Of a DNA stretch of 64,000 bases, positions 7,648 to 53,072 are shown piece after piece (positions within the stretch are counted from its first letter, which is position 1; each line of letters opens with the position of its first letter). The notes beneath the pieces are model-generated. The model was not told where the DNA came from, did no database searches, and was given only the letters and a program-made list of their open reading frames with translations. The position numbers and the translations under genes were made by a program. Origin of the DNA: Minisyncoccota bacterium (GTDB taxonomy: Bacteria; Patescibacteriota; Minisyncoccia; Phycocordibacterales; UBA9973); assembly GCA_018062425.1 (NCBI GenBank), contig JAGOSH010000001.1, positions 84,957-148,956 of the forward strand, read 5' to 3'.

Positions 7648-7720
7648 GGTGCCTATGGTGTAGTGGTAACACAGAAGCTTGTGGAGCTTTTATCTCCGGT
7701 TCGAATCCGGATAGGCACCC
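7648..7720 (+). tRNA. tRNA-His (GTG anticodon at 7681-7683) with encoded G-1
   Basis: Acceptor GTGCCTA/TAGGCAC, extra 5' G at 7648 opposite C, T-arm GGTTCGAATCC, anticodon loop TTGTGGA; CCA not encoded. Confidence 0.9.
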
Positions 7721-7782
7721 CCGCTAAGCGGGGGTGAGGTGTGCTTAGCACACCACCCCAATAAATTTGCTATAATTTCCGC

Positions 7783-19436: not shown

Positions 19437-19546
19437 TTTTGAGTTTTTGATTTGACAAATCATGATTATATATGTATACTGATTTTGAATCGAAGAACGC
19501 ACGGCGCGTTCTTTTTTATTGTTGTACATTTAAAAATTTATTCTCA

Positions 19547-19963
19547 ATGAGGAAAGAAAAGTCCATTTACAACCTCTCTCCAGGTTGGTTGATGCATCGG
19601 TTAACCTTGAAAACAGTTAATAAAAACAAGGATTTGTTTAATGAAATTTGCGTATTGGTTTCAAGACGATTGCAGGAGAAAAAAAGGATTTATAAAAATC
19701 CTTTTCCTCCCGGTGATTATCTGGTATCAATAACCATTCATAAAACGACCTTTGACGGATTAATTTTCAAGGATAAATACAAAGACCCTGCTATTTTGTC
19801 AGGAAACAAAAAACCCCTTGTTGTTTTCAGTATTGAGGTTCTAAAAGGAAACCAGGTCAATTTAGTTGACCTACAATCAAAGTCTTCAAAATTTGCTCCA
19901 ATTACATGCAAAGAAATTTGTGTACTGGTTTTAAACCAAATGGGATTCAAAGTTTCAAACTGA
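19547..19963 (+). CDS. hypothetical protein (start taken at an internal ATG of the track ORF 19472..19963)
   Basis: Own promoter (19452-19480) and terminator (19996-20030); no motif recognised; internal EICVLV repeat. Confidence 0.3.
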   Translation: MRKEKSIYNLSPGWLMHRLTLKTVNKNKDLFNEICVLVSRRLQEKKRIYKNPFPPGDYLVSITIHKTTFDGLIFKDKYKDPAILSGNKKPLVVFSIEVLKGNQVNLVDLQSKSSKFAPITCKEICVLVLNQMGFKVSN

Positions 19964-22069: not shown

Positions 22070-23065
22070 ATGCCGGAATTCGATCCGGGGAAAAGAGATT
22101 TTTTAAAGAAGAGTCTTCTCACTACAGGAGCGTTTCTTTTTAAGACCAATTCAACAGTTGCTAAAACTATTGAAAAAACAACTAGGCCATCTAATATGGA
22201 ACAGTTAGGAGACAAAACAACCCTTACTGATTCTGGAGAAAAATTCACTAACGGTGAACATGTATTTAGAGTTAATTTTAAACCAGAGGGTGCAACAGAA
22301 AGTAAAGACGTCGGAGAATTGTGGCCTGTGGGATTGATGAACTTTGTTACCAGAGAAACAGACCCAGACTTATTTCAGTTGGACATGGAAAATTTGTTAA
22401 AAAAAGCTGGAGGAGTAGCTACCTCTCCAGATGGAATGACAAAGGCAGCAAATGGATATGTTTTAGAAGGTAGGTCGCTTGCTCACGGTGAAGTAGTTGA
22501 AGGTAACGGTCAAGAGGTGCCTAGGTACGGTATCGTAGTTTTGGATAATAGGGGTAAAATAACTAAGTTTACTCACGGAGCCGAGTTAGCAACTTATGAT
22601 GCACAAGGTAACGTAACAGAAAAATCAAAATTCGATAAACTTTTTTCTGAAGTTAAGAGTGCCGGAGGAAGTTTGTTTTTCTTGCCAAGCATAATGAGAA
22701 CCTATGGAGGAGAAGTAAAAAAGTTAGAAAATGAAACTATGTTAGAACAGGTGCTCGTCAGGAGGCTTGAACCAGCTGTTGATGGTAATGGAAGACGTCT
22801 ATCTGGGGCAGAGCCCGTGGAAACTTATAAAGTTGTACGCTTTGATCCAATGATTTCATACAAGAATGCTATACGCACACTCGAGGGTTTGAACAGGCAA
22901 AACTCTGACGGTACTATGTCTGCTACCACCCATATATTTATGCTAGATGGAGGACAAGATTGGGACAGGGCTGCGAAAAAGTTGAGTACAAACAATGGAG
23001 AAGAAGTAGTTGTTTTATCAGAAGGGAAGAAAGACCTTGCTACGGCTGCTCTAGTTTTTTATTAA
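22070..23065 (+). CDS. hypothetical exported protein with Tat-like (KR) signal
   Basis: PEFDPGKRDFLKKSLLTTGAFLF N-terminus; weak resemblance (FMLDGGQDW) to phosphodiester glycosidase/DUF2233 proteins. Confidence 0.5.
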   Translation: MPEFDPGKRDFLKKSLLTTGAFLFKTNSTVAKTIEKTTRPSNMEQLGDKTTLTDSGEKFTNGEHVFRVNFKPEGATESKDVGELWPVGLMNFVTRETDPDLFQLDMENLLKKAGGVATSPDGMTKAANGYVLEGRSLAHGEVVEGNGQEVPRYGIVVLDNRGKITKFTHGAELATYDAQGNVTEKSKFDKLFSEVKSAGGSLFFLPSIMRTYGGEVKKLENETMLEQVLVRRLEPAVDGNGRRLSGAEPVETYKVVRFDPMISYKNAIRTLEGLNRQNSDGTMSATTHIFMLDGGQDWDRAAKKLSTNNGEEVVVLSEGKKDLATAALVFY

Positions 23066-23158
23066 AGGCTCCACGGTCATTTCAAAATTTGTCTACTCTT
23101 TACAAGATGACAGATGTTACAAGACCTCCGCTCACTCTGTGTGGTAGACTAAAAGGGG

Positions 23159-25225
23159 ATGCTATCTAAACTTACATTTCAAATAACAACTGCGCTCGGG
23201 GCTTTTTTACTTTTTCTTGCTGAGCCTTTTCTGGCTAAATTTATTACACCAATTGTCGGGGGGTCATTTTCAGTTTGGTCTGCAACAATTGCTTTTTTTA
23301 CCATAGCTCTTTTTTTAGGTTATGTATATGCGTATTCAATTCTTAGGTTAAGCAAAAGTTGGCAGATAGGGGTCCACGGTACATTGGTCTTGTTGTCACT
23401 CGGGTCACTTTTTTCGGGATATCTTTTGTGGGGTTTACCCCTCCTGCCCACTACTAACTTTTTACCAATTCAAAATTGGACTCCCTTTCTTTCAGTGTTT
23501 GTTTTGCTTTCATATTCTATATTAATTCCATTTATTCTTTTGTCATCGACGACTATATTACTCCAACGCTGGCAATCTTCGATTAAGGAAATAGAAGCTA
23601 ATCCCTACCGTCTTTATTCAATATCAAACATTGCCTCATTTGTTGCCCTGGGCAGTTTTCCTTTTCTGTTTGAGCTTTTTATGCCAATGTCGACCCTGTC
23701 CTTTTTCTGGAGTGCGTTTTTTATATTGTATGTAGTATGTCTTTTGTTAGCCATGCGAACATTTGCGAAGAAAGCAGTGATCATCGAGGCACCTACCCAA
23801 GATAGTAACGAGAACCATCCTACAACCAAACAGATTCTGTACTGGCTCGGATATTCCGCACTAGGCACATGGATTCTTGTTTCGGTTACCACTAGCCTTA
23901 ACCAGGGGATTAGTGGCTTTCCATTGTTATCAATCATCCCGTTAGCATTATATTTACTTACCTTTGTAATTGTGTTTCGGGGAGTTTCATTTCCTCCTGT
24001 TTTGGCACCCATAATAATTTTGTCTATTCTCTTGAGCCTACCCATAGAGATACACCTTTGGACAGTGATAGTCCTATCACTCCTCACTTTTCTTTTTTTT
24101 GCGTGTTTTTTCTTACACGAAGCAATATATAAAACAAGGCCAACCATAAAATATCTACCAACATTTTACCTTGTGGTTGCAGGTGGGGGAGCGTTGGGAA
24201 GTTTTCTGGGGAGTATCGTAGCACCTCTAATATTTCCAGACCTGTACGAAACTTTTATAGGCATGCTTGTAGTCATGTTCCTCATAATTCCGACATTAAA
24301 AGGATTAATGATGCAAACTGGATTTAATAAAAAAAGGTCCGGCGCGATTAAGGCTTTGTTGGTTTTTGTATACTTAATGATTATTGCCTCATTTATATTT
24401 CCAAGATTTGGAAAGAATTCAGAAGTACCAACCAGAACTTTTTACGGAATTTATAAAATATATGAGACCAAAGAAGACGTTGGGTCAATGCGGAAATTAA
24501 TTTCCGGGGACATTATTCACGGATCACAATTCACTGATGCGGCACGAAGTGCGGTACCCACTACGTACTATAGTCAAAAAAGCGGAGTAGGAATCGCCCT
24601 TCTTAACATTCGCCAGAATCCAAAATCTGTGGGTGTCGTTGGTCTGGGTACAGGCACCATGAGCGCCTATTGCGGTAGCAATGACCGATTTCGCTTTTAT
24701 GAAATTGACCCAGCTGTTGCCTTAATCGCCAGAAATAAATTCTCATTTATTAGCGATTGCGAAAACAGATCAGGTGTTGTTGAAATAATTATTGGCGATG
24801 CACGCCAATCCTTAGAGAGAGAAGAGGGTAACAATTTTGACATGCTTATTGTTGATGCGTTTACAGACGATGCTATACCCACACATCTTTTGACCCAAGA
24901 ATCTTTTGTAACCTACAAAAAGCATTTGAAAGATACCGGGGTACTCGCAGTGCATGTTTCAAATAAATTCCTAAGTTTAGATCCCATAGTTCTAGGTACT
25001 GCAAAGTCCATAGGTTATTCTGCTCGAGTTATTAAATATATACAACCATCCCCCGAAGAAAGTAAGCTTGGAGCAACAGGATCGAAGTGGGTAATTCTCG
25101 GAAGTGAGGCCTTCCTAAAGGAAGCATTTCCAAACACTGTGTACCCAACAACACCAATAGGTGATCCTTGGACGGATGATAAAAACAGTATCCTACCGGC
25201 GTTTTTAGAAAAAAAGAAGTTTTAA
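23159..25225 (+). CDS. fused polytopic membrane domain / spermidine synthase-like methyltransferase-fold protein
   Basis: About 12 TM segments, then VGVVGLGTGTMSAY and DMLIVDAFTDDAIPTHL (PABS-like). Confidence 0.65.
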   Translation: MLSKLTFQITTALGAFLLFLAEPFLAKFITPIVGGSFSVWSATIAFFTIALFLGYVYAYSILRLSKSWQIGVHGTLVLLSLGSLFSGYLLWGLPLLPTTNFLPIQNWTPFLSVFVLLSYSILIPFILLSSTTILLQRWQSSIKEIEANPYRLYSISNIASFVALGSFPFLFELFMPMSTLSFFWSAFFILYVVCLLLAMRTFAKKAVIIEAPTQDSNENHPTTKQILYWLGYSALGTWILVSVTTSLNQGISGFPLLSIIPLALYLLTFVIVFRGVSFPPVLAPIIILSILLSLPIEIHLWTVIVLSLLTFLFFACFFLHEAIYKTRPTIKYLPTFYLVVAGGGALGSFLGSIVAPLIFPDLYETFIGMLVVMFLIIPTLKGLMMQTGFNKKRSGAIKALLVFVYLMIIASFIFPRFGKNSEVPTRTFYGIYKIYETKEDVGSMRKLISGDIIHGSQFTDAARSAVPTTYYSQKSGVGIALLNIRQNPKSVGVVGLGTGTMSAYCGSNDRFRFYEIDPAVALIARNKFSFISDCENRSGVVEIIIGDARQSLEREEGNNFDMLIVDAFTDDAIPTHLLTQESFVTYKKHLKDTGVLAVHVSNKFLSLDPIVLGTAKSIGYSARVIKYIQPSPEESKLGATGSKWVILGSEAFLKEAFPNTVYPTTPIGDPWTDDKNSILPAFLEKKKF

Positions 25226-25328: not shown

Positions 25329-27479
25329 ATGGAAAGAGATTACCCACTAGAGAAAGTTAGAAATTTTGGAATTATTGCGCATATCGATGCTGGTAAGACT
25401 ACCACCACCGAGCGTGTTTTATTTTATACAGGTGTGTCCCACAAAATCGGTGAAGTTCACGATGGTGAAACTACAACCGACTGGATGGAACAGGAACGAG
25501 AGCGAGGTATCACTATTACTTCTGCTGCAGTTACTTGTTTCTGGACACCGACCTACGCGGCTCCAACAGACAAGAAGTTGAAACACCGTTTCAACATCAT
25601 CGATACCCCTGGGCACATCGACTTTACAGTGGAAGTGAAAAGATCTCTTCGAGTACTCGACGGAGCAGTGGTTGTGTTCGACGGTGTGGCCGGTGTAGAG
25701 CCACAGTCTGAAACCAACTGGCGTTATGCTGACGAAGCTAACGTTCCTCGTATCTGCTTCATCAATAAGCTCGACCGAACTGGCGCGTCTTTTGAACACT
25801 CCTACAAAACGATTTTGGATCGTTTGACCAAAAAAGCTGTCCGTATGCAAATCCCAATCGGGCTTGAAGAAAAGCACGATGGTGTTATCGATCTCCTTAA
25901 AATGAAGGCGTATTACTTTGAAGGAGAAATGGGTAATACTGTAATAGAAAAAGAAATCCCAGAAGAATACAAAAAAGAAGCAGAAGGTTACCACAATGAA
26001 CTTGTAGAAAAAATTGTTGAAAACGATGAAGCTCTGATGACCGAATACCTGGAAGGTATTGTGCCAGGTTATGACACTTTGAAAAAAGTTCTCCGTAAGG
26101 CTGTAATCGCAAACGCAATATTCCCAGTGTACGCAGGTTCGGCGCTCAAGAACAAAGGTGTTCAGCTTGTACTCGACGCTGTGGTTGACTATCTACCAGC
26201 TCCTACTGATATCCCACCTATCCCTGGTATCGACCCTAATACTGACGAGCCAACAGAGCGCAAAGCTTCTGACTCAGAGCCTTTTTCTGCTCTTGCTTTC
26301 AAAGTCGCTACTGACCCATTCGTAGGACAAATCATTTTCTTCCGTGTTTACTCTGGTTCTCTTTCAGCTGGAAGTTATGTTTACAATCCTCGTACACGAA
26401 ACAAAGAAAGAATCGGACGTATCTTGCGTATGCATGCGAACGACCGGGAAGAAGTAAAGAAAGTTTACGCTGGTGAAATCGCAGCAGCGGTAGGACTCAA
26501 AGATACCATTACTTCCGACACTATTTGTGACGAAGCAGCTCCAGTAGAACTAAACCGTATCGTTTTCCCTGAACCAGTTATCTCTCTACGTATTGAACCA
26601 AAGACAAAAGCTGACCAAGAAAAAATGGGTATGGCATTAAACCGTCTAGCTCAAGAAGACCCAACTTTCAGAGTTACTACTGATCAAGAAACAGGGGAGA
26701 CCATCATCGCTGGTATGGGTGAACTACACTTGGAAATCATTGTTGATCGTATGAAACGCGAGTTTACTGTCGAAGCAAACGTAGGTAAGCCGCAAGTTGC
26801 ATACAGAGAGACTATCAATGGCACTGCTGAAACAGAAGGAAAATACATCAAGCAGTCTGGTGGACGTGGTAACTACGGTCACGTAAAGATCAAGGTAAAG
26901 CCGATGGTAGCATTAACCAAAGAAGAGATAGAAGATCTACCAAAGAACACCAAACGTTCTGAAGCTTTCGAATTCATCAACAGCATCAAAGGAGGTGCTA
27001 TTCCTCAGGAATACATCGCTCCTTGTGAAAAAGGATTTAAAGAAGGTCTCGACCGTGGTATCCTCGCTGGGTTTAAAATGGTAAACGTTTCAGTAGAGCT
27101 ATGGGATGGATCTTTCCACGAAGTGGACTCCAACGAAATGGCTTTCAAAATCGCAGCTTCTATGGCAATCCAAGACGCATGTCGTGCTGCTCGCCCAGTA
27201 ATCCTCGAGCCGATGATGAAGGTTGAAGTTGTAACCCCAGATAAATTCATGGGTGACGTCACCGGTAACCTATCTTCAAAGCGTGGAATCATCGAGGGCC
27301 TAGAAGACCGTGGTATGAACAAGGTTGTGAAGGCTATAGTCCCTCTTTCTGAAATGTTTGGATACATGACCGGACTACGTTCTATGACCGAAGGCCGAGC
27401 ATCATTCACCATGGAGTTCACTCGTTACGATATTGTTCCAAACAACGTAGCAGATACAATCATCGCAGCTCGTAAGTAA
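25329..27479 (+). CDS. fusA: translation elongation factor G
   Basis: [25 protein letters not shown]-domain motifs; 716 aa. Confidence 0.97.
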
Positions 27480-27491
27480 GTATTTAATCAT

Positions 27492-27512
27492 CCCTGCCTG
27501 TCGCAGGCAGGG
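27492..27512. repeat. GC-rich palindromic element CCCTGCCTG-TCG-CAGGCAGGG
   Basis: 9-bp perfect stem, 3-nt loop, 12 nt after the fusA stop, no T-run; core shared with 29148-29169. Confidence 0.6.
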
Positions 27513-27547
27513 CGCTAGAAAGTAATTAGTGGTATAATCTAAATAAT

Positions 27548-29125
27548 ATGTTAAACAGTCTTAAAAATCTTCTAAAAAAGAAGAAGGTGCTTGTGTTGGG
27601 CGGGGTAATAGTTGCCGTAGTGCTTGTTTTTGTATTCAAAAACGGTAATGGAGAAAGTTTTTCAACCATCAGTCCTGCTTTTGGAACTTTGACTCGCAGT
27701 GTCCAAGCAACTGGCCAAGTGGTTTCTTCGACTGACCTGGATTTATCTTTTGCTAAATCAGGCATAGTGAGCTCGGTGAATGTAAAAGTTGGTGACAAGG
27801 TCAGGAGAGGTCAAGTGTTGGCAAGTCTCGATTCCGGAAGCGACAGGGCAGCCGTCACCAAAGCCAAGGCATCGGTTCTGGGAGCTCAAGCAAAACTCAA
27901 AAAAATAATCGAAGGTTCTTCAAACGAAGAGATTGCCTTGGCGCGAGTTAATTTGGAGAATGCAAAACAAGATTTAAAAAACACCGAAAATACTCAAACA
28001 ACCTTGGTCAAAAATGCTTACAGCAAATTAATGAATTCGACCCCGGAAGCAGTACCCCAAGATTCGCTTGGTGCTATCGCTACTGCACCAACCATAAGTG
28101 GTACTTATAAACTAGGAACCGAAGGTAAAATAAGTATCAGCGTGTACAGTTCGGGTAATGGGATCATGTTTTCTGTTGCCGGTTTGGTGACGGGTTCAGG
28201 TTCTGTAAATTCTACCAATCCACAACCACTTGGTGATTCTGGTTTGTATGTTTTATTTAGTACTACTACAAATTTGAGCGGTACTAACTGGGTGGTTAAC
28301 CTTCCAAACAAGAAAGCCACTGACTACCTAGCAAACGAAAGCGCATACTTGGCTGCACAGAATACCCAAAGTGCTGCTATTGCTTCTGCTCAGTCTCTGG
28401 TTAATCAACGCGAAGCAGAGCTCAACATTAAACTAGCTTCTGCACGAGATTCGGACATAGAACTAGCCCAAGCAGACGTCCTGTCCGCCCAGGGTGAGCT
28501 AGAGCGTGCACAAGCGTCTTACAGCGACAACCTGATCATAGCTCCAGAAAATGGCACCATAACAAAAGTTGAAACAAAATACGGTGAGTTGGCTAGCACT
28601 AATGTGTCAGCCATAACCCTCGAAGATATAGAGAATTTATACATTGAAGCTGATATCAACGAATCAAACATTGCTTCGATAAAAGCAGGTCAAAGTGTGG
28701 ACACAACTTTTGATGCCATCGGTAAAGACAGAATATTCAAAGGAACTATTTCACAAGTTGATCCGTCTTCGGTTACAACCGAAGGGGTTGTTAATTACAA
28801 AATAAAAGTTTCCATCGGAGAAGAGAATTTCACTATTCGTCCTGGAATGAACGCCGAGATCAGTATTTTGATTCAAAACATAGAGAACGTTATTTCTGTT
28901 CCTAACGCAGCTATCATACAAAGTGATGAGTTGATCGTAGAGGACAACAGTGTTCCACACGTATACGTCCCAGGGCCACAATACAAAAAATATCTGAATG
29001 TTGTAACCGGTGATAAATACAAAAAAGTTGAAGTTAAAACAGGTGTGGTGGGAGACGGCAACATGGTGGAAATCTTATCTGGAATAACCAAAGAAGATAA
29101 AATCGCAATCGTTGAAGAAAAATAA
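27548..29125 (+). CDS. HlyD/MacA-family membrane-fusion (periplasmic adaptor-like) protein
   Basis: N-terminal TM, biotinyl-lipoyl-like VKVGDKVRRGQVLASLD, coiled-coil region, beta-barrel C-terminus. Confidence 0.75.
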   Translation: MLNSLKNLLKKKKVLVLGGVIVAVVLVFVFKNGNGESFSTISPAFGTLTRSVQATGQVVSSTDLDLSFAKSGIVSSVNVKVGDKVRRGQVLASLDSGSDRAAVTKAKASVLGAQAKLKKIIEGSSNEEIALARVNLENAKQDLKNTENTQTTLVKNAYSKLMNSTPEAVPQDSLGAIATAPTISGTYKLGTEGKISISVYSSGNGIMFSVAGLVTGSGSVNSTNPQPLGDSGLYVLFSTTTNLSGTNWVVNLPNKKATDYLANESAYLAAQNTQSAAIASAQSLVNQREAELNIKLASARDSDIELAQADVLSAQGELERAQASYSDNLIIAPENGTITKVETKYGELASTNVSAITLEDIENLYIEADINESNIASIKAGQSVDTTFDAIGKDRIFKGTISQVDPSSVTTEGVVNYKIKVSIGEENFTIRPGMNAEISILIQNIENVISVPNAAIIQSDELIVEDNSVPHVYVPGPQYKKYLNVVTGDKYKKVEVKTGVVGDGNMVEILSGITKEDKIAIVEEK

Positions 29126-30417
29126 TGAAATCAAGTAAAGAAAATTTACCTGCCTACCGGCAGGCAGGTTTCAATAGAAATATAAAAGTTGGCTGGTTTT
29201 TGGCCAAGCGGGAACTCAAGCGGGCTAATAAATGGACCACAGGTCTTATCGTAGCCGTGATGACTTTGACGTTTTTGAACCTGGTTGTTGTCTCTGGAAT
29301 TCTAATAGGACTTATTCAAGGTTCTGAAGATGCTCAGAAAAAATACGCAATTGGTGATATTGTTATTTCTCCTTTTCTAAATAGAAACGTAATTCTACAA
29401 ACCCCAGAAGTTGAAAGTATAGTAAAAACTATTCCAGGGTACAGAAACCATACTGTGAGGTATTCAGGTTCAGCTCGAGTAGAAGACACCTATAGACAGA
29501 CAACAAAACCAGGAGAGAAAAAAGGTGGCGCCGGGGCGCCAATATTGGGTATTGACCCAGTTCTCGAAGATAAGTTTTCTGGAGTTTCAAAATTTGTTCT
29601 ACGAGGTGAATATTTGAATGCATCTGATGCAGACAGTATATTGATTGGTAAAAACTTTCTTTACGAATTCACTCCAATTGATGCTCCTGGATTTGAAAGT
29701 TTGAAAAACACCAATGTTGGTTCTAGGGTGAAACTTACTTCCGGTAACATAGAAAAAGAATATTTCGTCAAAGGAATTCTAAGTTCCAAGGTAGATACTT
29801 TTGACTTCTCAGTGGTGATGCTCGCTAGTGAAGCTAGAAAATTATCTAGTCAGACTGACTTAAATGCTGGATCCATTGCTATCCAATTGCAACCAGGAAC
29901 TGATCCTAATCTAGCTAAAAAGTTTTTGATAGACAGTGGGGTAGAAGAGTGGGCGCGAGTGCAAACTGCCGAAGAGGCGTTTCCTAAATTCTTGAAAGAT
30001 ATCAAAGCAACTTTTGGTATCCTAGGGTCAGCGATTTCCGGCATAGGTTTGGTGGTTGCTTCAATTACGATCTTTATTGTGATTTTTGTTAACGCTATTA
30101 CTCGCAGACGATATATTGGAATATTGAAGGGTATTGGTATAAACAAACAAGCTATATTGTTCTCGTATATGTATCAAGCAACCATATATGCTTCACTGGG
30201 TATTTTATTAGGCATGATGTTAATATTTGGTTTCATTAAACCTTATTTTGCTGAAAACCCAATAAACTTTCCTTTCTCAGACGGAATACTGGTAGCTACT
30301 TTGTCCGGAACTTTCACCAGAGCTTTTATCTTGCTAGTGACGACTATGATTGCCGGATACATACCAGCGCGAATAGTTATAAAACAAAATACATTATCAG
30401 CAATCTTGGGAAGATAA
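29125..30417 (+). CDS. ABC transporter permease, FtsX/MacB-like
   Basis: N-terminal TM, large extracytoplasmic loop, three C-terminal TM segments (FtsX domain). Confidence 0.8.
   Translation: MKSSKENLPAYRQAGFNRNIKVGWFLAKRELKRANKWTTGLIVAVMTLTFLNLVVVSGILIGLIQGSEDAQKKYAIGDIVISPFLNRNVILQTPEVESIVKTIPGYRNHTVRYSGSARVEDTYRQTTKPGEKKGGAGAPILGIDPVLEDKFSGVSKFVLRGEYLNASDADSILIGKNFLYEFTPIDAPGFESLKNTNVGSRVKLTSGNIEKEYFVKGILSSKVDTFDFSVVMLASEARKLSSQTDLNAGSIAIQLQPGTDPNLAKKFLIDSGVEEWARVQTAEEAFPKFLKDIKATFGILGSAISGIGLVVASITIFIVIFVNAITRRRYIGILKGIGINKQAILFSYMYQATIYASLGILLGMMLIFGFIKPYFAENPINFPFSDGILVATLSGTFTRAFILLVTTMIAGYIPARIVIKQNTLSAILGR
29148..29169. repeat. GC-rich palindromic element ACCTGCC...GGCAGGCAGGT inside the 5' end of the permease ORF
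   Basis: CCTGCC at 29149-29154, GGCAGGCAGG at 29159-29168; encodes LPAYRQAG. Confidence 0.55.
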
Positions 30418-30420
30418 AAC

Positions 30421-31095
30421 ATGATTCAAGTTAAAAATTTAAGCAAAATATTTCAAAGTGGAGATGCGCAAATAATTGCTTTAAACAATCTTACTTTTTC
30501 TGTACCAGAAGGGCAGTTCTTGACCGTCACAGGGAAATCAGGTAGTGGTAAATCAACACTGCTTTACCAACTAGGATTGCTAGATTTGCCAACCTCTGGG
30601 GAGGTGTATATAGATGGTATCGAATACACCAAGCTGGAAGAGAACGCTCGCACAGTATCAAGGCTAAATGACTTGGGGTATATCTTCCAAGATTATGCTA
30701 TTTTACCTTCACTCACTGCGCTTGAGAACACAATGCTGCCTCTCCTGATGCAGGGTTATGATATGAAAGAATCAGAAGAGAAAGCTAAAAAGGCTTTGGA
30801 TAAAGTTGGATTGCTAGATCGTATGAACAACCTACCTTCTGCGTTATCTGGTGGGCAGCAACAGCGTGTGTCTATCGCGCGCGCGATATCCCATGAGCCC
30901 AAAATTATATTTGCCGACGAACCGACAGCTAACCTGGACTCGGAGACTTCGAAACATGTGATTGACGCTTTTGTAAAACTAAACAAAGAAGGCCAGACCA
31001 TCATCATGGTAACTCACGAAGAAGAATATGCTCGTCTAGCTGACCGCACCATCACTATGGCGGACGGAAACATCGTCTCGGATGTTTTGAACTAA
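30421..31095 (+). CDS. ABC transporter ATP-binding protein (MacB/LolD-like)
   Basis: GKSGSGKST Walker A, LSGGQQQRVSIARA signature, IFADEPT Walker B. Confidence 0.92.
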   Translation: MIQVKNLSKIFQSGDAQIIALNNLTFSVPEGQFLTVTGKSGSGKSTLLYQLGLLDLPTSGEVYIDGIEYTKLEENARTVSRLNDLGYIFQDYAILPSLTALENTMLPLLMQGYDMKESEEKAKKALDKVGLLDRMNNLPSALSGGQQQRVSIARAISHEPKIIFADEPTANLDSETSKHVIDAFVKLNKEGQTIIMVTHEEEYARLADRTITMADGNIVSDVLN

Positions 31096-31194
31096 ACTTT
31101 GATTTTCCACACAGACTGGTTGTGTTATGGGTTTTTATAAGAGACAATACAGTAGTGAAAGAGTGCGGGGGATTATTTTATCTAATATTGATTC

Positions 31195-32043
31195 ATGAAA
31201 AAATATATTAAACTTTTTTTACTCATTTTAGTTTTATTACCTTTTTCTGCTACAGCTTATGAACTCCAGCCGTATTACGTACAAAAAATTGATGAGATCG
31301 AAAGTAAAATAACCGTCAAAGATAGATACGGTAAGTTTTACGTACTAACATATGGTCCTGAATGTAGTGGATGGTGGACGTATACGGGGCAGAGAATATA
31401 CATCAACGCTAGAGGGCCATTCCTAGACGGTGTGGAAGACGAAATATTTCTAAATGACTTAGGAATTCGAGCTTGTCCTGTTCGGAAAGTTTCTTATGTC
31501 AAAGGCGGTCCTGGTTATTACGTGATACACCAAAGTAGTATCTGTCCGGACCACGGCTTCATTTCGCCAGTCGATGCCAATATGTGTGAGTGCACCTCTG
31601 GATATAAATTCGATATTGACCGGCACATTTGTGTCCCTTTCAAAACGAACGATCAAATTTGTAAAGAAAGATTCGGTCTTTACAGTGTCTGGGACGGTAC
31701 TTTTGACCAGAAACATGCGCTTAATTGTATCTGTAAAACAGGCTTTATCTGGAATCAGAGTAAGACAGCCTGCGTCAGAGACAAGGTTGCCACTAACAGT
31801 GTTGGAGCGGTAGCCAAAACAGATATACAAACCACAAACGAAACACCAGGTGCTGCTCTGGGAGATAGTGCTGAGAGCGCAGAGAACGTACAAACAGAAA
31901 CAGAAACAATCTTAACCAATAATACTCAGAATAATACTCAAAGAGCACCTTGGTACAAGACATTTTTAGGAATGGTAATTATATTGGTAGTGGTGATGCT
32001 CGTTGTATACAATTTAGTAAAAGCCTACAAAAATCGACAGTAG
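31195..32043 (+). CDS. secreted Cys-rich protein with EGF-like repeats and C-terminal TM anchor
   Basis: Signal peptide; CECTSGYKFD..HICV and CICKTGFIWN..ACV repeats; C-terminal hydrophobic segment. Confidence 0.55.
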   Translation: MKKYIKLFLLILVLLPFSATAYELQPYYVQKIDEIESKITVKDRYGKFYVLTYGPECSGWWTYTGQRIYINARGPFLDGVEDEIFLNDLGIRACPVRKVSYVKGGPGYYVIHQSSICPDHGFISPVDANMCECTSGYKFDIDRHICVPFKTNDQICKERFGLYSVWDGTFDQKHALNCICKTGFIWNQSKTACVRDKVATNSVGAVAKTDIQTTNETPGAALGDSAESAENVQTETETILTNNTQNNTQRAPWYKTFLGMVIILVVVMLVVYNLVKAYKNRQ

Positions 32044-32296
32044 TAAATATATTTGACATTTCCTAACATAAAGGTTAATTTTGATTAAATTCTTTCACTA
32101 AATCTTTCTTTGTTGTATGGGAAAAGCAGACGCAATCTATAAAGCCTGTATGGGCTTTCTTATTCTCGTGTTTTTCAGTTTCGCCTTGTACGTTGGCTTT
32201 CATTATTAGCCTTTCGGTAAAAAAAGGTTTCTTAATAACCTAAAAACTTCACAATGTGTGAAAAATATTGAGCGGGTAGTTTCCGTTATAAAACTG

Positions 32297-32320
32297 CCCA
32301 TCTTTTAGATGGGTTTTTTT
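32297..32320 (+). terminator. rho-independent terminator
   Basis: Stem CCCATCT/AGATGGG plus T7. Confidence 0.7.
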
Positions 32321-32478
32321 ATTTGGAAATTTCACATTGACAAATCATGTAATTTTTATAAGATAAAAATATGTTTACCAAAAGTAACCAATATATGCTG
32401 ATTAAGATTTCTACCCGAACCACCGCTTGGGGCGTTACTTTTGCTTTAGCTTAATCCAGAACAATAATCTAAACCAAA

Positions 32479-32520
32479 AGCAGCTCTCCAAGCCCTAGGC
32501 CTGGAGAGCTGCTTTGTTCT
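32479..32520 (+). terminator. rho-independent terminator (12-bp stem)
   Basis: AGCAGCTCTCCA/TGGAGAGCTGCT followed by TTTGTTCTTT. Confidence 0.65.
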
Positions 32521-32588
32521 TTAAGCTCTTTGACACTTTTTCTAACCTTTCGGCCTAAAAGCCGAATACAAACCCAACCCGCTTTGTT

Positions 32589-32972
32589 ATGAAAAACATA
32601 GCAATATTCTGCTTATTGTTCGCATGTATTAGCGCTTCTGCCCAAAATATTCTTCTGGGCGAAAATGCTTATGTTGAATTTTTGCACCATGACACTATTA
32701 AGATAGAGTTGTATAACTTGTACACTTTCTCTGTACTGAAAAAAGATAAAATCAGAGTAGAAAAAATGCAATATGCTTACAACAAAGCAACGAAGGGCTT
32801 GGTCGTCATAAAATCAAGCATAGTAGTCAACGAATCTGATGTCCCTGAAAACATCTGTGAGTTCACATTCAAGAGTGATGACATATTGGTTAAGGCTTAT
32901 AGAAAGCCTACACATTGTTTTCTCTTGCTGATGAATAAGGCCTACACCCATTTTGGGATTGCGCTTAGGTAA
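32589..32972 (+). CDS. small secreted hypothetical protein (signal ending ...ISASAQN)
   Basis: Signal peptide; shares its upstream element with the next gene. Confidence 0.5.
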   Translation: MKNIAIFCLLFACISASAQNILLGENAYVEFLHHDTIKIELYNLYTFSVLKKDKIRVEKMQYAYNKATKGLVVIKSSIVVNESDVPENICEFTFKSDDILVKAYRKPTHCFLLLMNKAYTHFGIALR

Positions 32973-33031
32973 AAATACATCAAATTTTTCTAACTCTTCG
33001 GTTAATCCGAATACAAAAGCTTCATCACATT

Positions 33032-34498
33032 ATGAAAAAGCTAAATCTAACCCTCGCTTTTTTAGTCGCAGTTGACTGTATTTCCGCTCAAGATTTACCA
33101 TTGCAAAACCAACCTGGAAACAATGTCCAACCGCGTGGCGATTGCATTGAGGTATTGAATACCTCACAATTCTTCGCCGGTGAATTCGGTGGAGGGCAAG
33201 GAACTTCTTCTGTTTGTTTTTCATTCCCGTCCACATGTGGAGCGGAAGGCAGGATGAACTCAAATTCAGTTGTGGACTTCCTACAGTTCTCGGTTGGTAG
33301 TGATACTTCAGGTGTTATTGGGGTTGGTTCGTCAGGCTTCGGTGATCTTGAATATCTTTCGGTTGGTCAGGTAGTTCTTCTGCCATTTGATTTTTCACCA
33401 CCGCGGGCGTTTGAAGGACCGATTCACATTGACGTTGGGTCTGATGGATTCATTGTTGAAAAACTTTCAGATGGCTTAACTGGGGATATGTTTTTTACAG
33501 TTAGTTTACAGAATTTCTCTATAACCTTGTTGTCAAACAGGAGTCATTTCACCAACTACAGCATTGAGTGTAAGCCGCTCAATGTATGCGCTGATTATGT
33601 CGGTGTTCAGTATGCCGTGGCTTGCCCAGGGAAGGACTTATTTCTTGTGTCTAAATGTTATGACTCCGATTACAAGACAATTTGGATTAATCCAGAGGGC
33701 GACACCATTATCTGCGAACTGGATACCCTGCGTGTAAATGACCCAGTTTCTGTCGGAGCATATCAATGGATAACCCCATGCAACAAGGGGTATGTGTTGG
33801 TTTACAACCCAGACTCGGTTAGAATCGAAAATCGGCAAATTTTTTGCTCAAGCAAGCAAAAACTTTTTTTGCCAACTGGCCTGAAGGGTAATTGGTCAAA
33901 TGGGGTAGAAAACTCAAACTACATTCAGGTAACAAGTCCTGGTACTTACTGGGTAAATGTTTCAAACTGCATACAGGATTCAATAGCTGTAGATATAATT
34001 TTTGAGGATCTTGATTTGGACTTACATTTCGTTCCAGACGTGGATACAATACTGTTCTTTCAAGAACTAAAAGTTATTCCTGAAGCAATATCTGGTACAA
34101 CATTTACTTGGCAAAAAGATGGTCAACCTGTCTGGGGTTACTATGGAACAGGACTCTATACCATAACCGGCACCTATGACGAATGTCGAGAGCAGGATAC
34201 GATTCTGGTGATTCCGGAACTTTTTTCTGAATGCGATTGGCCTGTATATAAGCCTACTGTGTTTTCGCCAAACAGTGATGGGGTAAACGACCTGTTTCAA
34301 GTTTTTGGGCCCGACGGTTCGGTATCTAAGATATGGGTGTACGACAGGTGGGGAGGGCTCATGTATTCTGGTGAGGCTTGGGATGGTACCTGGGAAAGCA
34401 AAGAGCTCAAGCCCGGTGTTTATACATTTAAGGCACGGGTTGTTTGGGGTTTTGAAGAATGTTCACGTATCTATGGTGATGTTACCTTAATTCGGTAA
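33032..34498 (+). CDS. secreted protein with T9SS type-B (gliding-motility-associated) C-terminal sorting domain
   Basis: Signal ...DCISAQD; C-terminus VFSPNSDGVNDLF..WVYDRWGGLMYSGEAWDGTW..PGVYTFKARV..GDVTLIR. Confidence 0.8.
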   Translation: MKKLNLTLAFLVAVDCISAQDLPLQNQPGNNVQPRGDCIEVLNTSQFFAGEFGGGQGTSSVCFSFPSTCGAEGRMNSNSVVDFLQFSVGSDTSGVIGVGSSGFGDLEYLSVGQVVLLPFDFSPPRAFEGPIHIDVGSDGFIVEKLSDGLTGDMFFTVSLQNFSITLLSNRSHFTNYSIECKPLNVCADYVGVQYAVACPGKDLFLVSKCYDSDYKTIWINPEGDTIICELDTLRVNDPVSVGAYQWITPCNKGYVLVYNPDSVRIENRQIFCSSKQKLFLPTGLKGNWSNGVENSNYIQVTSPGTYWVNVSNCIQDSIAVDIIFEDLDLDLHFVPDVDTILFFQELKVIPEAISGTTFTWQKDGQPVWGYYGTGLYTITGTYDECREQDTILVIPELFSECDWPVYKPTVFSPNSDGVNDLFQVFGPDGSVSKIWVYDRWGGLMYSGEAWDGTWESKELKPGVYTFKARVVWGFEECSRIYGDVTLIR

Positions 34499-34613
34499 AT
34501 CAAAAATTGAATAAAAATGGAAAATATAACCTAGGCCCGGGATTGCGAAAAGCAAGACTGGGCCTATAAACGTTTTACCCAGGTTTTACCCAGTTTTTCA
34601 GGCGAAAGGGTGT

Positions 34614-34641
34614 TTGACATTAAAAATTTATCTGCTAATAT
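34614..34641 (+). promoter_or_regulatory. strong sigma70-like promoter TTGACA-16-TAATAT for tuf and the S10 operon
   Basis: TTGACA 34614-34619, TAATAT 34636-34641. Confidence 0.6.
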
Positions 34642-34787
34642 GAACCGTAACTGCACTTTCGCAGTTTTTTCGTTCCTAATTAATAAAATTATAAGTAATT
34701 GTATTAGTAGCAGGGCCTTGGTAAATTCTCGTATATTGAGTCCCAGTTATTAATGAACCCCGACGCCAGAGGCGCGGGAAAAATCAT

Positions 34788-35984
34788 ATGGCAGCAGAAG
34801 AATTTAAAAGAGATAAGCCACACGTAAACGTAGGTACCATTGGTCACGTTGACCACGGAAAGACCACTTTAACAGCGGCTATTTTGAATTGTCTTAACTT
34901 GGCAGGTAACACTGTTCGCATGAAGAGTGTTGACCAAATCGACGGTGCTCCAGAAGAAAAAGCTCGTGGTATTACCATCAACATCTCCCACAACGAGTAC
35001 GAAACAGCTGCTCGTCACTACGCTCACATCGATGCTCCTGGTCACGCTGACTACATCAAGAACATGATCACCGGTGCCGCTCAAATGGACGGTGCTATCC
35101 TTGTGGTTGCTGCAACTGACGGTGCTATGCCTCAGACTCGTGAACACGTTCTCTTGGCAAAGCAGGTTGGTGTGCCAAAAATCATTGTTTTCCTTAACAA
35201 ATGCGACATGGTTGACGACAAAGACATGATCGATATGGTTGAAGAAGAAATCCGTGAACTCCTTACAAAACAAGGCTTTGATGGTGCTAACGCTCCGGTT
35301 ATCCGTGGTTCAGCTCTTAAGGGTCTTGAAGCTACTTCAGCCGATGATGAGTGGGCAAAGAAAATCCTTGAACTTACTAACGCTCTTGATACTTACATTC
35401 CTGTACCAGAACGTGATGTTGCAAAGCCATTCTTGATGCCTGTTGAAGACATATTCTCAATCGAAGGCCGTGGTACTGTTGTAACTGGTAAAATCGAAAG
35501 AGGTGTCGTAAAGGTAGGTGAAGAAATCGAAATCGTTGGTGTTAAAGCTACTCAGAAAACTACTGTTACTGGTATCGAAATGTTCAACAAGAACTTGCAA
35601 GAAGGTATGGCTGGAGACAACGCTGGAATCCTTCTCCGAGGCTTGAAGAAAGACGACATTACTCGTGGACAGGTTCTCTGCAAGCCAGGTACTACCACTC
35701 CTCACGACAACTTTACTGCTGAAATCTACGTTCTAAAGAAGGAAGAAGGTGGCCGACACACTCCATTCTTTAAGGGTTACAAGCCTCAGTTCTACGTTCG
35801 AACTACAGACGTGACTGGTGAAGTTACTCTACAAGAAGGAACTGAAATGGTTATGCCTGGAGATACTGTAAAGATAACTGTTAAATTGGTTACTCCAGTT
35901 GCTCTAGAAGAACAACAGAGATTTGCTATCCGTGAAGGTGGTAAGACTGTAGGTGCTGGTGTAGTAACAAAAATATTAGGCTAA
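34788..35984 (+). CDS. tuf: translation elongation factor Tu
   Basis: [25 protein letters not shown] motifs. Confidence 0.98.
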
Positions 35985-45844: not shown

Positions 45845-46138
45845 ATGCAAATCAACGAATTAAAAAGGAAACACAAGAATAAAAAAGACCGACTTATCGG
45901 TCGTGGGGGAAAGCACGCCAAGACTTCTGGTCGTGGTGGTAAAGGACAAACAGCTCGTGCTGGAAACAAGCGCCGACCGGAACTTCGCGATATAATTAAG
46001 AAACTACCAAAGTTGAGAGGTTACCGTTTTAACTCTAGGATTGGGGACAAGGTAGTAGAAGCCAAGCCCGAAGAGAAGTTCAGTGAAATTAGAAAGAGAA
46101 CTGGTATGAAGGGTGGCAAAATAGTCATCAAAAAGTAA
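45845..46138 (+). CDS. rplO: 50S ribosomal protein L15, unusually short (97 aa)
   Basis: GRGGKHAKTSGRGGKGQTARAG motif; stop overlaps the secY start. Confidence 0.8.
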   Translation: MQINELKRKHKNKKDRLIGRGGKHAKTSGRGGKGQTARAGNKRRPELRDIIKKLPKLRGYRFNSRIGDKVVEAKPEEKFSEIRKRTGMKGGKIVIKK

Positions 46139-50294: not shown

Positions 50295-53072
50295 ATGGAT
50301 TCGTTTTCTTTTAAAGGAATGCCAAAATTTAAAACTCCAGAAGAGGAGTTGGCTTTTTTGCGTGCACACGTAGCTGAAAAGGAGCAGGCTCTCATTGATA
50401 AGGGCCACTTTGAAAGTGCTAAAGAAAACGCAATTACCAGCACTATTTTAGAATACAAAAATGTGCCAGCGCAAGAAGCAGTCCACAAAGACAACCTGAT
50501 CCAAGAAAAAGAACAAGAAGGAATCGTACTAAAGTTAAAACCCGAGACCCATGATACTGTCATGGAAGAACTTTTGGGATTGCTTATAACAAAAGGCATC
50601 AGGAATGCTCTGGCTATTGTGGAATCAATGAATAATCCCCACGTAGACGATGACTTCCATAGGATACTTATTCAATATCTAAAAACTGGCCAATTGGCTG
50701 GTCTGCTCAAAGAAGGTACACCACTTTGGAAGTCACTAAACATGACACTTTTCGAAGTCACCTTACCACCACCGCACGACGAAGCCAGTAAATCAAAAGG
50801 ATTCAAAGAATTTATCGGAGCAATGGAGCAATTCTATGCTGGTATGCATTCGATCTCGGATGAGCCTAGAAATCTAAAAGAGAATTACTTTACACTAGAA
50901 ATTGCGCTATCGAGTTCTTCTGACGAGGTTATCATCTACGCGGCTGTTCCCAACAAACATTTGGCGTTGTTCGAGAAACAAGTTTTGGCTTTTTACCAAG
51001 ACGCTAAGGTTGTGGAGTCGACTAACGACTACAACATCTTCAACGATAACGGAGCGTCTGCTGGAGCGTATGGGGCCTTTGTTGAAAATTCTATTTTACC
51101 GATAAAGACATACGACAGCATCGACCACGATCCGATGAATACTATTTTGAATGTCTTCTCGAAACTAAAGACCAAGGGTGAGGGCGCGGCTATTCAGCTA
51201 GTTGTAGCACCAGCTGGAAATAAATTTATTCACGATTTCACCGAAATACTTCGTGATGTAAAAAAAGGTGATTCTATAAAACACGCTTCAAATAATTTTT
51301 ATAAGTTCCATTATGCTCTGTTCAATGCCGGGAAAGAGTTTTTTATGGACTCTAATAAGAAAGGTGAAGATGCTCCGATGCCAGGCAGGAGAACCGTGGA
51401 TGAAGGCGCGGCCGAGAAGATTTCTAATAAAATGAAAGCCAGCATCATGAAAGCAAATTTACGCGTCATTGCCTCTGCTGACACCAAAGAACGGGCAGAC
51501 GGAATACTAGCAGAAATAGAATCATCTTTTAACCAGTTCAACGAGCCAGCCAGCAATTCTTTTGTTTTTGAAAAGTTAAAGGGTAGTGATTTGAAGAAAC
51601 TTTTCCATGAATATTCTTATCGTGCTTTTAACGCAGATAAAACTTTGCCGATGAACTTAAAGGAGTTGGCCTCGGTTTTCCATTTCCCAGTAGGTATCGG
51701 CAGTCAACCAGCACTCAAGGAAGCCAAGGCTGGTATGGCGCCAGCACCTGTTGAATTGAGTGTTTTGGGTAGTAGTGACGGAATTATTTTGGGAGTGAAT
51801 GAATACCGTGGCAAAGAAACTACCATTCGAATGACCAAAGAAGACAGAATGCGACACATGTATGTTATCGGTCAGACTGGTACTGGTAAAACCACAATCC
51901 TAAAAAACATGATTTACCAAGATATCCAAAATGGTGATGGATGTTGTTTCATTGACCCGCACGGTACTGACATTCAGGATATACTTTCCTATGTTCCGAA
52001 AGAGCGCATAGATGACGTTATCTATTTCGACCCGGCATATACTGCGCGTCCGATGGGGCTTAATATGTTGGAGTACGATCCGAATTATCCAGAACAGAAA
52101 ACCTTTGTGGTGAACGAACTTATGGGTATATTCAACAAACTCTTCGACATGAAGGTGGGTGGTGGTGCTATGTTCGAACAGTACTTCCGAAACAGTGCTT
52201 TCCTGGTGATGGAAGACCCAGAATCCGGTTCTACTATGCTCGAGATTACTCGGGTATTGGCAGACAAAAAGTTCCGTGACATGAAACTGGCCAAGTGTAA
52301 GAACCCTATCATCAAGCAATTCTGGATTTCGGCGGAGGAGACTACAGGGGACCAGTCGTTGGCTAACTTCGTGCCGTATATTTCTTCTAAATTCGATAAC
52401 TTCATTTCCAACGATATTATGCGTCCGGTGGTTCTGCAACAAAATTCTGTGTTCAACTTCAGAAAAATAATGGATGAGAAGAAAATCCTTCTAGTGAATT
52501 TGTCCAAAGGAAGGCTGGGGGACATCAACGCGAATTTGATTGGTCTCGTGCTGGTTGGTAAAATCCAGATGGCGGCACTTTCTCGGGTGGATATGTTCGG
52601 AAAACCGATGAATGATTTCTATCTTTACATCGATGAATTCCAGAACGTCACCACAGACTCTATTGCGTCTATTTTATCTGAAGCTCGTAAATACAGACTT
52701 TCGCTTACTATTGCTCACCAATACATTTCTCAGCTCGAGGAAAGTATCAAGAATGCTGTTTTTGGTAACGTCGGTTCAATGGCTATATATCGTATTTCCA
52801 CCGAGGATGCCAACTTTGTCGAGCCTAAATTCAAACCTACTTTTTCCGCTAATGACATTACCAAGCTCGACAACTTTAATTCATATGTGAGTATGTTGGT
52901 CGGAGGACAGCCAGTGAAGCCTTTCTCCATGACTTCACACTGGAGTTTGGTAGCAAAAGGGAACAAAGAAGTCGTTGATGCCCTCAAAGAGCTATCTTAC
53001 ATGAAGTATGGCCGCCCACGTGAAGAAGTGGAGGAGGAAATAATGGGTAGATTTAACTCTTCGATGCAGTAG
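50295..53072 (+). CDS. VirD4/TraG/TraD-like (type IV coupling protein family) P-loop NTPase with a large novel N-terminal domain
   Basis: GQTGTGKTT Walker A, CCFIDPHG, YLYIDEFQN Walker B, ARKYRLSLTIAHQYISQL; no TM segment seen. Confidence 0.6.
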   Translation: MDSFSFKGMPKFKTPEEELAFLRAHVAEKEQALIDKGHFESAKENAITSTILEYKNVPAQEAVHKDNLIQEKEQEGIVLKLKPETHDTVMEELLGLLITKGIRNALAIVESMNNPHVDDDFHRILIQYLKTGQLAGLLKEGTPLWKSLNMTLFEVTLPPPHDEASKSKGFKEFIGAMEQFYAGMHSISDEPRNLKENYFTLEIALSSSSDEVIIYAAVPNKHLALFEKQVLAFYQDAKVVESTNDYNIFNDNGASAGAYGAFVENSILPIKTYDSIDHDPMNTILNVFSKLKTKGEGAAIQLVVAPAGNKFIHDFTEILRDVKKGDSIKHASNNFYKFHYALFNAGKEFFMDSNKKGEDAPMPGRRTVDEGAAEKISNKMKASIMKANLRVIASADTKERADGILAEIESSFNQFNEPASNSFVFEKLKGSDLKKLFHEYSYRAFNADKTLPMNLKELASVFHFPVGIGSQPALKEAKAGMAPAPVELSVLGSSDGIILGVNEYRGKETTIRMTKEDRMRHMYVIGQTGTGKTTILKNMIYQDIQNGDGCCFIDPHGTDIQDILSYVPKERIDDVIYFDPAYTARPMGLNMLEYDPNYPEQKTFVVNELMGIFNKLFDMKVGGGAMFEQYFRNSAFLVMEDPESGSTMLEITRVLADKKFRDMKLAKCKNPIIKQFWISAEETTGDQSLANFVPYISSKFDNFISNDIMRPVVLQQNSVFNFRKIMDEKKILLVNLSKGRLGDINANLIGLVLVGKIQMAALSRVDMFGKPMNDFYLYIDEFQNVTTDSIASILSEARKYRLSLTIAHQYISQLEESIKNAVFGNVGSMAIYRISTEDANFVEPKFKPTFSANDITKLDNFNSYVSMLVGGQPVKPFSMTSHWSLVAKGNKEVVDALKELSYMKYGRPREEVEEEIMGRFNSSMQ

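Follow-up and report, generated by a model that had tools for sequence, protein, structure and literature searches.

The 64-kb window considered here, 64,000 nucleotides of a contig (JAGOSH010000001.1) assigned to a Minisyncoccota bacterium, carries at 33032..34498 on the forward strand an open reading frame (ORF) of 488 amino acids (aa). The product, referred to below as the CTD protein, ends in a type-B C-terminal sorting domain (CTD) of a type IX secretion system (T9SS), a system associated with Bacteroidota. The gene is a genuine part of a genome of the candidate phyla radiation (CPR) and is under purifying selection. Taking the observations together we favour, with moderate confidence, the explanation that a Bacteroidota-type surface module was acquired long ago and that the protein is now exported by Sec and works in an adhesin-like manner without a T9SS in a CPR cell.

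From the signal peptide through an orphan N-terminal domain and about three immunoglobulin (Ig)-like repeats to the type-B CTD, the architecture predicted from the ORF is as follows.

33032..33088, forward strand: signal peptide, aa 1-19, MKKLNLTLAFLVAVDCISA followed by QD, read from the sequence.
33089..33586, forward strand: family-specific, beta-rich N-terminal domain, aa 20-185, recognised in five relatives by phmmer; AlphaFold confidence below 50.
33587..34243, forward strand: about three Ig-like beta-sandwich repeats, aa 186-404, placed by AlphaFold confidence (pLDDT 76-93), Foldseek and BLASTP.
34244..34495, forward strand: T9SS type-B CTD, aa 405-488, placed by TIGR04131, PF13585 and a CTD-only model with pLDDT 94.9.

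The initial annotation, which had been made from the sequence alone, held that the last ~85 aa match the T9SS type-B CTD almost motif for motif, and searches with the two models it had proposed bear this out. With TIGR04131 (NCBIfam, T9SS type-B sorting domain) the C-terminal 81 aa score 41.2 bits, above the curated cut-off of 35; the alignment takes in model positions 4-85 of 85 and runs to residue 488 of 488. The Pfam model CHU_C (PF13585) gives 36.3 bits against a gathering score of 27. The type-A model TIGR04183 is not matched by the protein (13.2 bits, cut-off 23), and the tail is classed on these scores as type B, not type A. A hidden Markov model (HMM) made from 81 CTDs from outside the family and run against the window ORFs matches 33032..34498 at E = 4e-25 and no other ORF. 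Six columns are invariant in the Bacteroidota CTD alignment; all six residues are present here (P413, N419, R439, W440, G441 and W450) and are likewise invariant across the CPR family alignment. Searches of the 64-kb window with Pfam, NCBIfam and the mini-HMM gave no other CTD-bearing ORF. A weak type-A mini-HMM match at 19472..19963 (E = 0.06), unsupported by Pfam, was dropped as a second CTD.

An AlphaFold model based on an 85-sequence alignment is confident and all-beta for aa 185-488 (pLDDT 76-97) and not confident for aa 1-184; the CTD modelled alone is an all-beta sandwich. The Ig-like repeats show the Cys / W.dGs / G.Y.v.v / C pattern typical of Bacteroidota CHU_C-type surface proteins, and their cysteines are common to 66-81 of the 81 non-family matches. 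With the model of the protein, Foldseek retrieved tandem-Ig adhesion molecules and a fragment of Aureispira GhpA. The CTD-only model gave weak, generic beta-sandwich matches in the PDB (E of at least 5e-3), which do not point specifically to a T9SS-CTD fold and include PorU (6za2) and the T9SS-bound NucA CTD (8glk_D). A family profile searched against PDB sequences matched 20 stretches of GhpA, the best being residues 5516-5889, comprising its last Ig-like repeats and tail; GhpA was reached only in this way, as phmmer with the single CTD protein found no match among PDB sequences. By BLASTP, aa 212-488 are 31% identical to the C-terminal repeats and CTD of a 726-aa protein (P0007), the genes adjoining which encode type-A CTDs, and the nearest non-family matches adjoin Por_Secre_tail genes. 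Relatives of the CTD number more than 6,000, and every named one among the 120 matches listed is from Bacteroidota. Metagenome contigs scanned with the family alignment and with the single CTD protein gave no match. The C-terminal ~300 aa, Ig-like repeats plus type-B CTD, would then constitute a module derived from Bacteroidota, joined to an N-terminal domain with zero Pfam matches.

Judged by inspection, the N-terminus, MKKLNLTLAFLVAVDCISA ahead of QD, shows the features of a Sec/signal peptidase I signal (charge, a hydrophobic core, small-x-small), and matching n-, h- and c-regions were recognised in the same way in the relatives L050, P0209, P0211, P0212 and, once its start is corrected, L059. 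The signal peptide ending ISAQD had been noticed at the outset and stands. The Bacteroidota-like style then ascribed to it does not, because the CPR lineage's own small secreted proteins share that style.

Over 27024-35057 the window is reproduced with 100% identity in four Logan assemblies, each of a different sequencing run, and in one NCBI metagenome assembly; this stretch crosses both junctions of the gene, spans the ABC-exporter side and reaches into tuf. A 68%-identical orthologue occupies the same slot on a 286.6-kb contig of GCA_964404925.1, in the gene order S12-S7-fusA-MFP-FtsX-ABC-(island)-tuf-S10. The GC content of the CTD gene (0.431), its third-position GC (GC3, 0.391) and its codon-usage distance (0.083) are ordinary for the window, and no deviant base composition or codon usage was found relative to the window range. 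The tetranucleotide profile, suggested earlier as a check on continuity, also falls within that range and is native to the window. The gene is fully ameliorated and the transfer is therefore old. That the gene arose as an assembly chimera, or by binning contamination from a Bacteroidota genome, had been raised in the initial annotation; the unexpected taxonomy of the protein, and nothing further, speaks for it. The identical assemblies, the syntenic orthologue on a long CPR contig and the native codon and tetranucleotide usage refute it. Further evidence against an artefact, which we regard as practically discounted, comes from a remoter family member that occupies this slot on a 29.5-kb CPR contig, and from the promoter, leader and pre-gene motif that the operon has in common with a CPR-only gene.

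Searching the GTDB species representatives with FtsX, the permease encoded next to the slot, gave 38 loci at 73-92% FtsX identity. They lie on metagenome-assembled genomes (MAGs) labelled Paceibacterota, Paceibacteria, Nomurabacteria, Minisyncoccia or Patescibacteria group, with an NCBI lineage of Patescibacteria / Parcubacteria group. The exception is one TPA batch of many assemblies labelled 'Candidatus Saccharibacteria', possibly a pipeline default. Loss of ribosomal protein L30 is a hallmark of the CPR. In the window S5 is followed by an unusually short L15 of 97 aa (45845-46138) and then by SecY, with no L30 gene between them. The genome is that of a CPR bacterium (Paceibacteria), in line with the earlier impression that the rest of the window looked CPR-like. 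A protein identical to the CTD protein, from a Candidatus Pacebacteria MAG, has two NCBI accessions (MBP6866294.1 and MBP9851193.1) and bears the NCBI name 'gliding motility-associated C-terminal domain-containing protein'.

The N-terminal domain defines a small family. When 1.84 billion representatives were searched exhaustively with aa 20-190 (phmmer), only five real relatives emerged (P0002 and P0209-P0212), all with the same full-length architecture and all passing TIGR04131 (38.9-55.4 bits, cut-off 35). The four proteins P0209-P0212 have 461-507 aa and are 34-49% identical. P0210 (L059/L060), one of these four, occupies the ABC-tuf slot in a different Paceibacteria; it lies on a 29.5-kb contig, and the genome has a GC content of 32.5% and a fusA and a tuf that are 91-93% and 94-95% identical to those of the reference loci. 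The true start of this member lies upstream of the called start, and the correction restores its signal peptide. The P0210 gene (L059 8737-10188, Logan SRR17828878) is directly followed by one for a secreted, 479-aa type-A CTD protein (L059 10318-11757), which scores 38.3 bits with TIGR04183 (cut-off 23) and 35.3 bits with PF18962 (cut-off 27). In a further locus, L013 (CAZFSV010000008.1), positions 4062-4592 encode a secreted protein of 176 aa with a type-A CTD (PF18962, 40.7 bits, cut-off 27). With type-A tails in these two loci the phenomenon therefore spans both CTD classes, and the statement made at the outset that T9SS CTDs are known only from Bacteroidota/FCB bacteria does not hold, since both classes recur in this CPR clade. 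L013 also encodes, at 6139-8379, a 746-aa protein of SBBP beta-propeller repeats that ends in a PG_binding_1 (peptidoglycan-binding) domain; it may be a surface protein in the Bacteroidota style that was given a new anchor suited to a wall lacking an outer membrane.

Two lineages of the N-domain family are demonstrably CPR. Three other members (L055, L056 and L057) occur in contexts that resemble small genomes. These include genes for type IV pili, a MacB exporter and, on a contig of 423.6 kb (JGI Ga0558126_00153), housekeeping genes; one L057 gene is 69% identical to a Paceibacteria gene. Within 10 kb of these three members there are no outer-membrane or T9SS genes. Two cysteines, C401 just upstream of the CTD and C477 within it, are invariant in six family members and absent from the 81 Bacteroidota matches; they may form a disulfide that clamps the CTD. 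When CTDs only are compared, the deep members are as near to Bacteroidota CTDs (40-47%) as to one another; the CTD of the family has stayed on the general consensus. In the explanation that we favour, the Bacteroidota module became fused to a CPR-family-specific N-terminal domain and then diversified within the CPR lineage. The inter-phylum transfer proposed in the initial annotation is supported to this extent. A recent, one-off event is not, given a family diverged to 34-49% identity, an ameliorated gene and type-A CTDs in relatives.

The distribution of the CTD gene is patchy and mosaic. One of the 38 FtsX relatives carries it (L008, on the same contig as L006). It was found in the window, in L008 and in L050/L051, with a divergent, paralogue-like copy in L059, and is absent from L046 and from 36 other relatives. 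On L050, a JGI contig, fusA and a small gene, g127, are followed by the N-terminus of a CTD orthologue with an intact signal peptide; L051 is probably the C-terminal half of that orthologue, and the neighbour after it differs. In eight other relatives the order fusA-MFP-FtsX-ABC-gap-tuf is kept, the gaps measuring 0.2-4 kb and differing in content in each. The ABC-tuf slot is a recombining accessory island, and in the window two further genes occupy it.

31195..32043, forward strand: g282, Cys-rich and EGF-like-patterned, with a signal peptide and a C-terminal transmembrane helix; from the ORF list, with sub-threshold EGF-type Pfam matches.
32589..32972, forward strand: g127, small secreted protein with a signal peptide (..CISASA/QN), first gene of the operon with the CTD gene; from the ORF list.

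As had been noted before, g127 and the CTD gene are flanked by a MacB-type ABC exporter (27548..31095) on one side and by tuf (34788..35984) on the other. Their position was then taken as an intrusion into a normally contiguous str operon. That argument loses force, because this clade conserves the ABC exporter between fusA and tuf, and the stretch from ABC to tuf is variable, each relative having its own cargo there. The exporter was also considered as a dedicated partner of the CTD protein and rejected, because it is kept in all 38 relatives with or without the CTD gene.

The closest relative by housekeeping genes, L046 (fusA and tuf 99% identical, L3 and L4 97%), holds homologues of g282 (77% identical) and g127, and in addition g132, a distant paralogue of g127, without the CTD gene. 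The sequence 3' of the g127 stop in L046 is almost identical to that 3' of the CTD-gene stop in the window, and the two loci therefore differ by a clean, gene-sized indel. Identities to the window conflict along the locus. FtsX and ABC favour L008 (92% and 95%) over L046 (78% and 89%), while MFP is 90% identical in L046 and 60% in L008, and the flanking fusA, tuf, L3 and L4 are nearest to those of L046. Recombination has therefore occurred within the clade, and comparison of 27548-34498 with L046 and L008 points to breakpoints inside the exporter operon. The g282 product, by its predicted features, is probably that of another surface-protein gene of the variable slot.

Between the window and L006 synonymous sites are saturated (proportion of synonymous differences, pS, 0.71-0.82), and the proportion of nonsynonymous differences (pN) is 0.14-0.29. 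The CTD is the least changed region, with pN 0.139 against pS 0.72. All six pairwise comparisons of four orthologues give pN of 0.14-0.28 against pS of 0.57-0.87, for the CTD and the Ig repeats alike. The CTD gene is under purifying selection. Among the deep family members mean identity is 42% in the CTD and 35% in the other two domains, and 17 of 84 CTD columns are invariant as opposed to 10 of 150 and 28 of 219; by these measures the CTD is the best-conserved domain of the family. Does the tail then have a function of its own? It might have arrived by horizontal gene transfer together with useful Ig/adhesin domains and serve as a structural end-cap only, or the whole gene might be nearing loss. 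The absence of the gene from L046, a disrupted signal-peptide region in L006/L008 and the quick turnover of slot content are compatible with such a history. However, a useless tail of 84 aa would be expected to erode or shorten over such divergence, whereas the CTD has pN far below pS in six of six comparisons, is the most conserved domain among members whose overall identity is 35-44%, and still scores above the curated TIGR04131 cut-off in all of them. We consider a neutral passenger rather unlikely. A new use of the domain without T9SS, one of the options offered in the initial annotation, is favoured by the selection data, though not proven.

Could the protein be genuine T9SS cargo? At least 20 components make up the T9SS, a machine of the outer membrane (PMC9143113), and Patescibacteria are proposed to have no such membrane (PMC12102498). 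PorP/SprF-like genes are often, although not obligatorily, adjacent to the genes for type-B cargo (PMC12618676). There is no PorP/SprF-like shuttle gene beside the CTD gene or in the orthologous loci, and its neighbours g127 and g282 have no significant Pfam or NCBIfam match. None of the scanned proteins of the window is a T9SS component, in agreement with the first reading of this DNA, and the precomputed Pfam lists for L006, L046, L055, L057 and L059 contain no PorP/SprF-like or other T9SS gene. A literature search gave no paper connecting the T9SS or its CTDs with CPR/Patescibacteria. The CTD is probably not a T9SS export signal here, because the T9SS belongs to an outer membrane that Patescibacteria are thought to lack and because no T9SS genes were seen. 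It is conceivable that the lineage has a T9SS, or an unrecognised export or attachment system that recognises CTDs, elsewhere in the genome; conserved type-A and type-B CTD proteins in the clade would fit, and our gene scans cover the window and related loci rather than whole genomes. Weighed against the number of components required, the presumed lack of an outer membrane and the silence of gene lists and literature, we find this very improbable.

Type-A CTDs bind PorV. For type-B CTDs the partners are PorP/SprF-like barrels of the outer membrane, to which they remain bound at the cell surface (PMC9143113, PMC12618676). A CPR cell might accordingly display CTDs that bind the PorP/SprF (type B) or PorV (type A) barrels of a Bacteroidota host, so that attachment would take place at the proteins with which the host handles its cargo. 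Several observations are in keeping with docking of this kind. The CPR CTDs hold exactly the Bacteroidota consensus residues and are as near to Bacteroidota CTDs as to each other, the CTD is the most conserved domain of the family, both CTD classes recur in the clade, the module donors are Bacteroidota, and cultivated Patescibacteria are episymbionts (PMC12206443). On the other hand motif conservation may be purely structural, and the family-specific cysteine pair shows that the CTD has been modified. We judge docking unlikely. Its extension, that CPR episymbionts captured both T9SS CTD classes as ligands for host CTD-receptor barrels, in which case CTD type would predict host range, is a speculative idea that we would rate slightly lower still.

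In the explanation that we favour, acquisition of a surface module that works without a T9SS, Sec would export the CTD protein, which would then be a cell-surface or extracellular, adhesin-like, Ig-repeat binding protein of Paceibacteria. The CTD would have been kept by selection as a folded binding or anchoring module, for retention on the CPR envelope or for binding to a partner cell. Several points weigh against this view. The adhesin role is suggested by the Ig-like folds and by resemblance to GhpA and to cell-adhesion molecules, and conservation of the CTD motifs could follow from fold stability only. The absence of T9SS genes pertains to the 64-kb window and to loci of ~20 kb, not to whole genomes. 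The assignment of L055, L056 and L057 to a phylum is presumptive, not confirmed, and CTD-only BLAST does not separate a single acquisition from multiple ones. The L006/L008 copy (L006 9770-10000; also L007) has an in-frame TAA within the signal-peptide region and lacks a canonical start before the annotated TTG, and at least one lineage may therefore be losing the CTD gene or using it differently. Coding conservation of the L006 copy reaches ~40 codons upstream of that TTG, the L006/L008 locus has neither g127 nor the leader described below, and this copy may be 5'-truncated or newly pseudogenised.

The CTD gene is predicted to be co-transcribed with g127 from a promoter of their own and through a structured leader. 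Terminator-like hairpins that follow g282 end at 32314, and the elements beyond them are these.

32337..32364, forward strand: sigma-70-like promoter of the g127/CTD operon, TTGACA, 16 nt, TAAGAT, matching 10 of 12 consensus positions.
32371..32523, forward strand: structured 5' leader or small RNA of ~150 nt, conserved in the window, L050 and L046.
32540..32572, forward strand: pre-gene motif copy 1, TTCTAACCTTTCGGCC..GCCGAATACAAA, a small hairpin 16 nt upstream of the g127 start, found as direct repeats.
32988..33017, forward strand: pre-gene motif copy 2, 14 nt upstream of the CTD-protein start, found as direct repeats and by a regex scan.
34533..34565, forward strand: hairpin AGGCCCGG..CTGGGCCT downstream of the CTD-gene stop, likely the operon terminator; read from the sequence, near-identical 3' of g127 in L046.

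A TTGACA...TATAAT element is kept upstream of g127 in L050 and of g132-g127 in L046. The leader ends in an 18-bp hairpin (32477-32515, an inverted repeat) followed by the U-rich TTGTTCTTT, in the manner of a terminator or attenuator. The stem has compensatory changes among the window, L050 (~690-860) and L046 (~9330-9500), and the minimum free energy of the leader is -52.3 kcal/mol (z = -5.1 relative to shuffles). Searches of Rfam at gathering thresholds and at a relaxed E-value gave no credible match. The leader could be an attenuator, a riboswitch or a small RNA controlling the operon. The pre-gene hairpin motif, ~30-33 nt of the form TTCTAAC..TTCGG..CCGAATACAAA, was also located by the regex scan before g127 in L046 (9957-9986), and looks like a cassette-type translation or processing signal common to island genes.

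The small neighbour remarked on in the initial annotation, g127, is indeed a gene, and a conserved one. Neither Pfam nor NCBIfam gives a match, and only three homologues were found among 5.8 billion proteins, 68-100% identical and all in the same slot of related CPR contigs. The possibilities that it encodes a lipoprotein or a PorP-like partner were rejected, the cysteine not being conserved and there being no family match.

Some observations concern the surroundings of these elements. The first 105 nt of the contig L005 (GCA_020050275.1, JAHZTE010172053.1) match neither the window nor the fetched loci, with identity starting at 32359, inside the promoter; this segment is either a strain variant 5' of the operon or a contig-end artefact. 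Within 34614-34666 the tuf promoter (TTGACA, 16 nt, TAATAT with TG) is directly followed by a terminator-like hairpin and a T-run; the window, L046 and L008 all keep this arrangement, a possible leader or attenuator of tuf. The str operon is interrupted a second time at 22070-25225, where two genes absent in L006 stand between rpsG and fusA. The first encodes 331 aa with a Tat-like N-terminus (KRDFLKK) and the second a polytopic membrane protein of 688 aa whose C-terminal domain is soluble; neither has a Pfam match at E <= 0.001. At 50295-53072 a 925-aa protein has TrwB/TraG-type domains, those of a type IV secretion system (T4SS) coupling protein, and fits the monoderm-type T4SS reported for Patescibacteria.

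The T9SS sorting domains are usually taken to indicate Bacteroidota/FCB bacteria and cargo that an outer-membrane machine handles. Here purifying selection has preserved such a tail in a CPR lineage while its members diverged deeply, and the lineage has added its own cysteine pair. The CTD may have a T9SS-independent function in anchoring or partner binding, or close interaction with Bacteroidota may allow these CPR bacteria to make use of the CTD receptors there, in which event the host proteins that handle secretion cargo would be the docking site of the symbiont; the least likely option is CTD-recognising machinery outside the known phyla. Any of these, if true, would offer a rare molecular handle on surface building and partner choice in uncultivated Paceibacteria. 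A practical caution is that the presence of a T9SS in metagenome bins should not be deduced from CTD counts. The domain call itself is not new, because PGAP already labels the protein. What appear to be new are the evidence that the locus is authentic, a family associated with CPR that has a head domain and a cysteine pair of its own, the preservation of the tail over a long time, the presence of type-A tails in relatives as well, and the island and leader context.

The closest parallel is with the CHU_C, or type-B CTD, cargo of Bacteroidota, such as SprB of Flavobacterium johnsoniae and PG1035 of Porphyromonas gingivalis. The CPR protein resembles these in its Sec signal peptide, in Ig-like repeats with the same cysteine and W.dGs/G.Y pattern, and in a complete CTD at the extreme C-terminus that scores above thresholds and has all the consensus residues. 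It differs in its unique N-terminal domain, in the pair C401/C477 that brackets the CTD and in a length of 488 aa, which is much smaller than that of SprB-type adhesins; moreover, neither a T9SS gene nor a PorP/SprF gene is in view in its CPR host, which presumably lacks an outer membrane. Type-A cargo (Por_Secre_tail, TIGR04183/PF18962) has its counterpart in the above-threshold tails encoded by the CPR loci L059 and L013, whereas the window protein is of type B.

A second likeness, seen with the family profile and with Foldseek, is to the 'grappling hook' protein GhpA of Aureispira sp. CCB-QB1 (PDB 9flp and related entries), a T9SS substrate that forms a surface structure and captures prey cells (PMC12428579). 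GhpA is heptameric, outer-membrane-anchored, secreted by the T9SS and 5,898 aa long, whereas the CPR protein has about three repeats and a different head domain. Finally, the gene may be set beside the surface and host-interaction genes that Patescibacteria have acquired horizontally, such as the monoderm-type T4SS and type IV pili. In common with these it has an accessory role, a patchy distribution, a relation to the surface, a streamlined CPR genome as its setting and signs of having come from another phylum (PMC12102498; PMC12206443). Unlike those, the CTD would have come from a diderm phylum, as part of a module that normally needs an outer-membrane machine.

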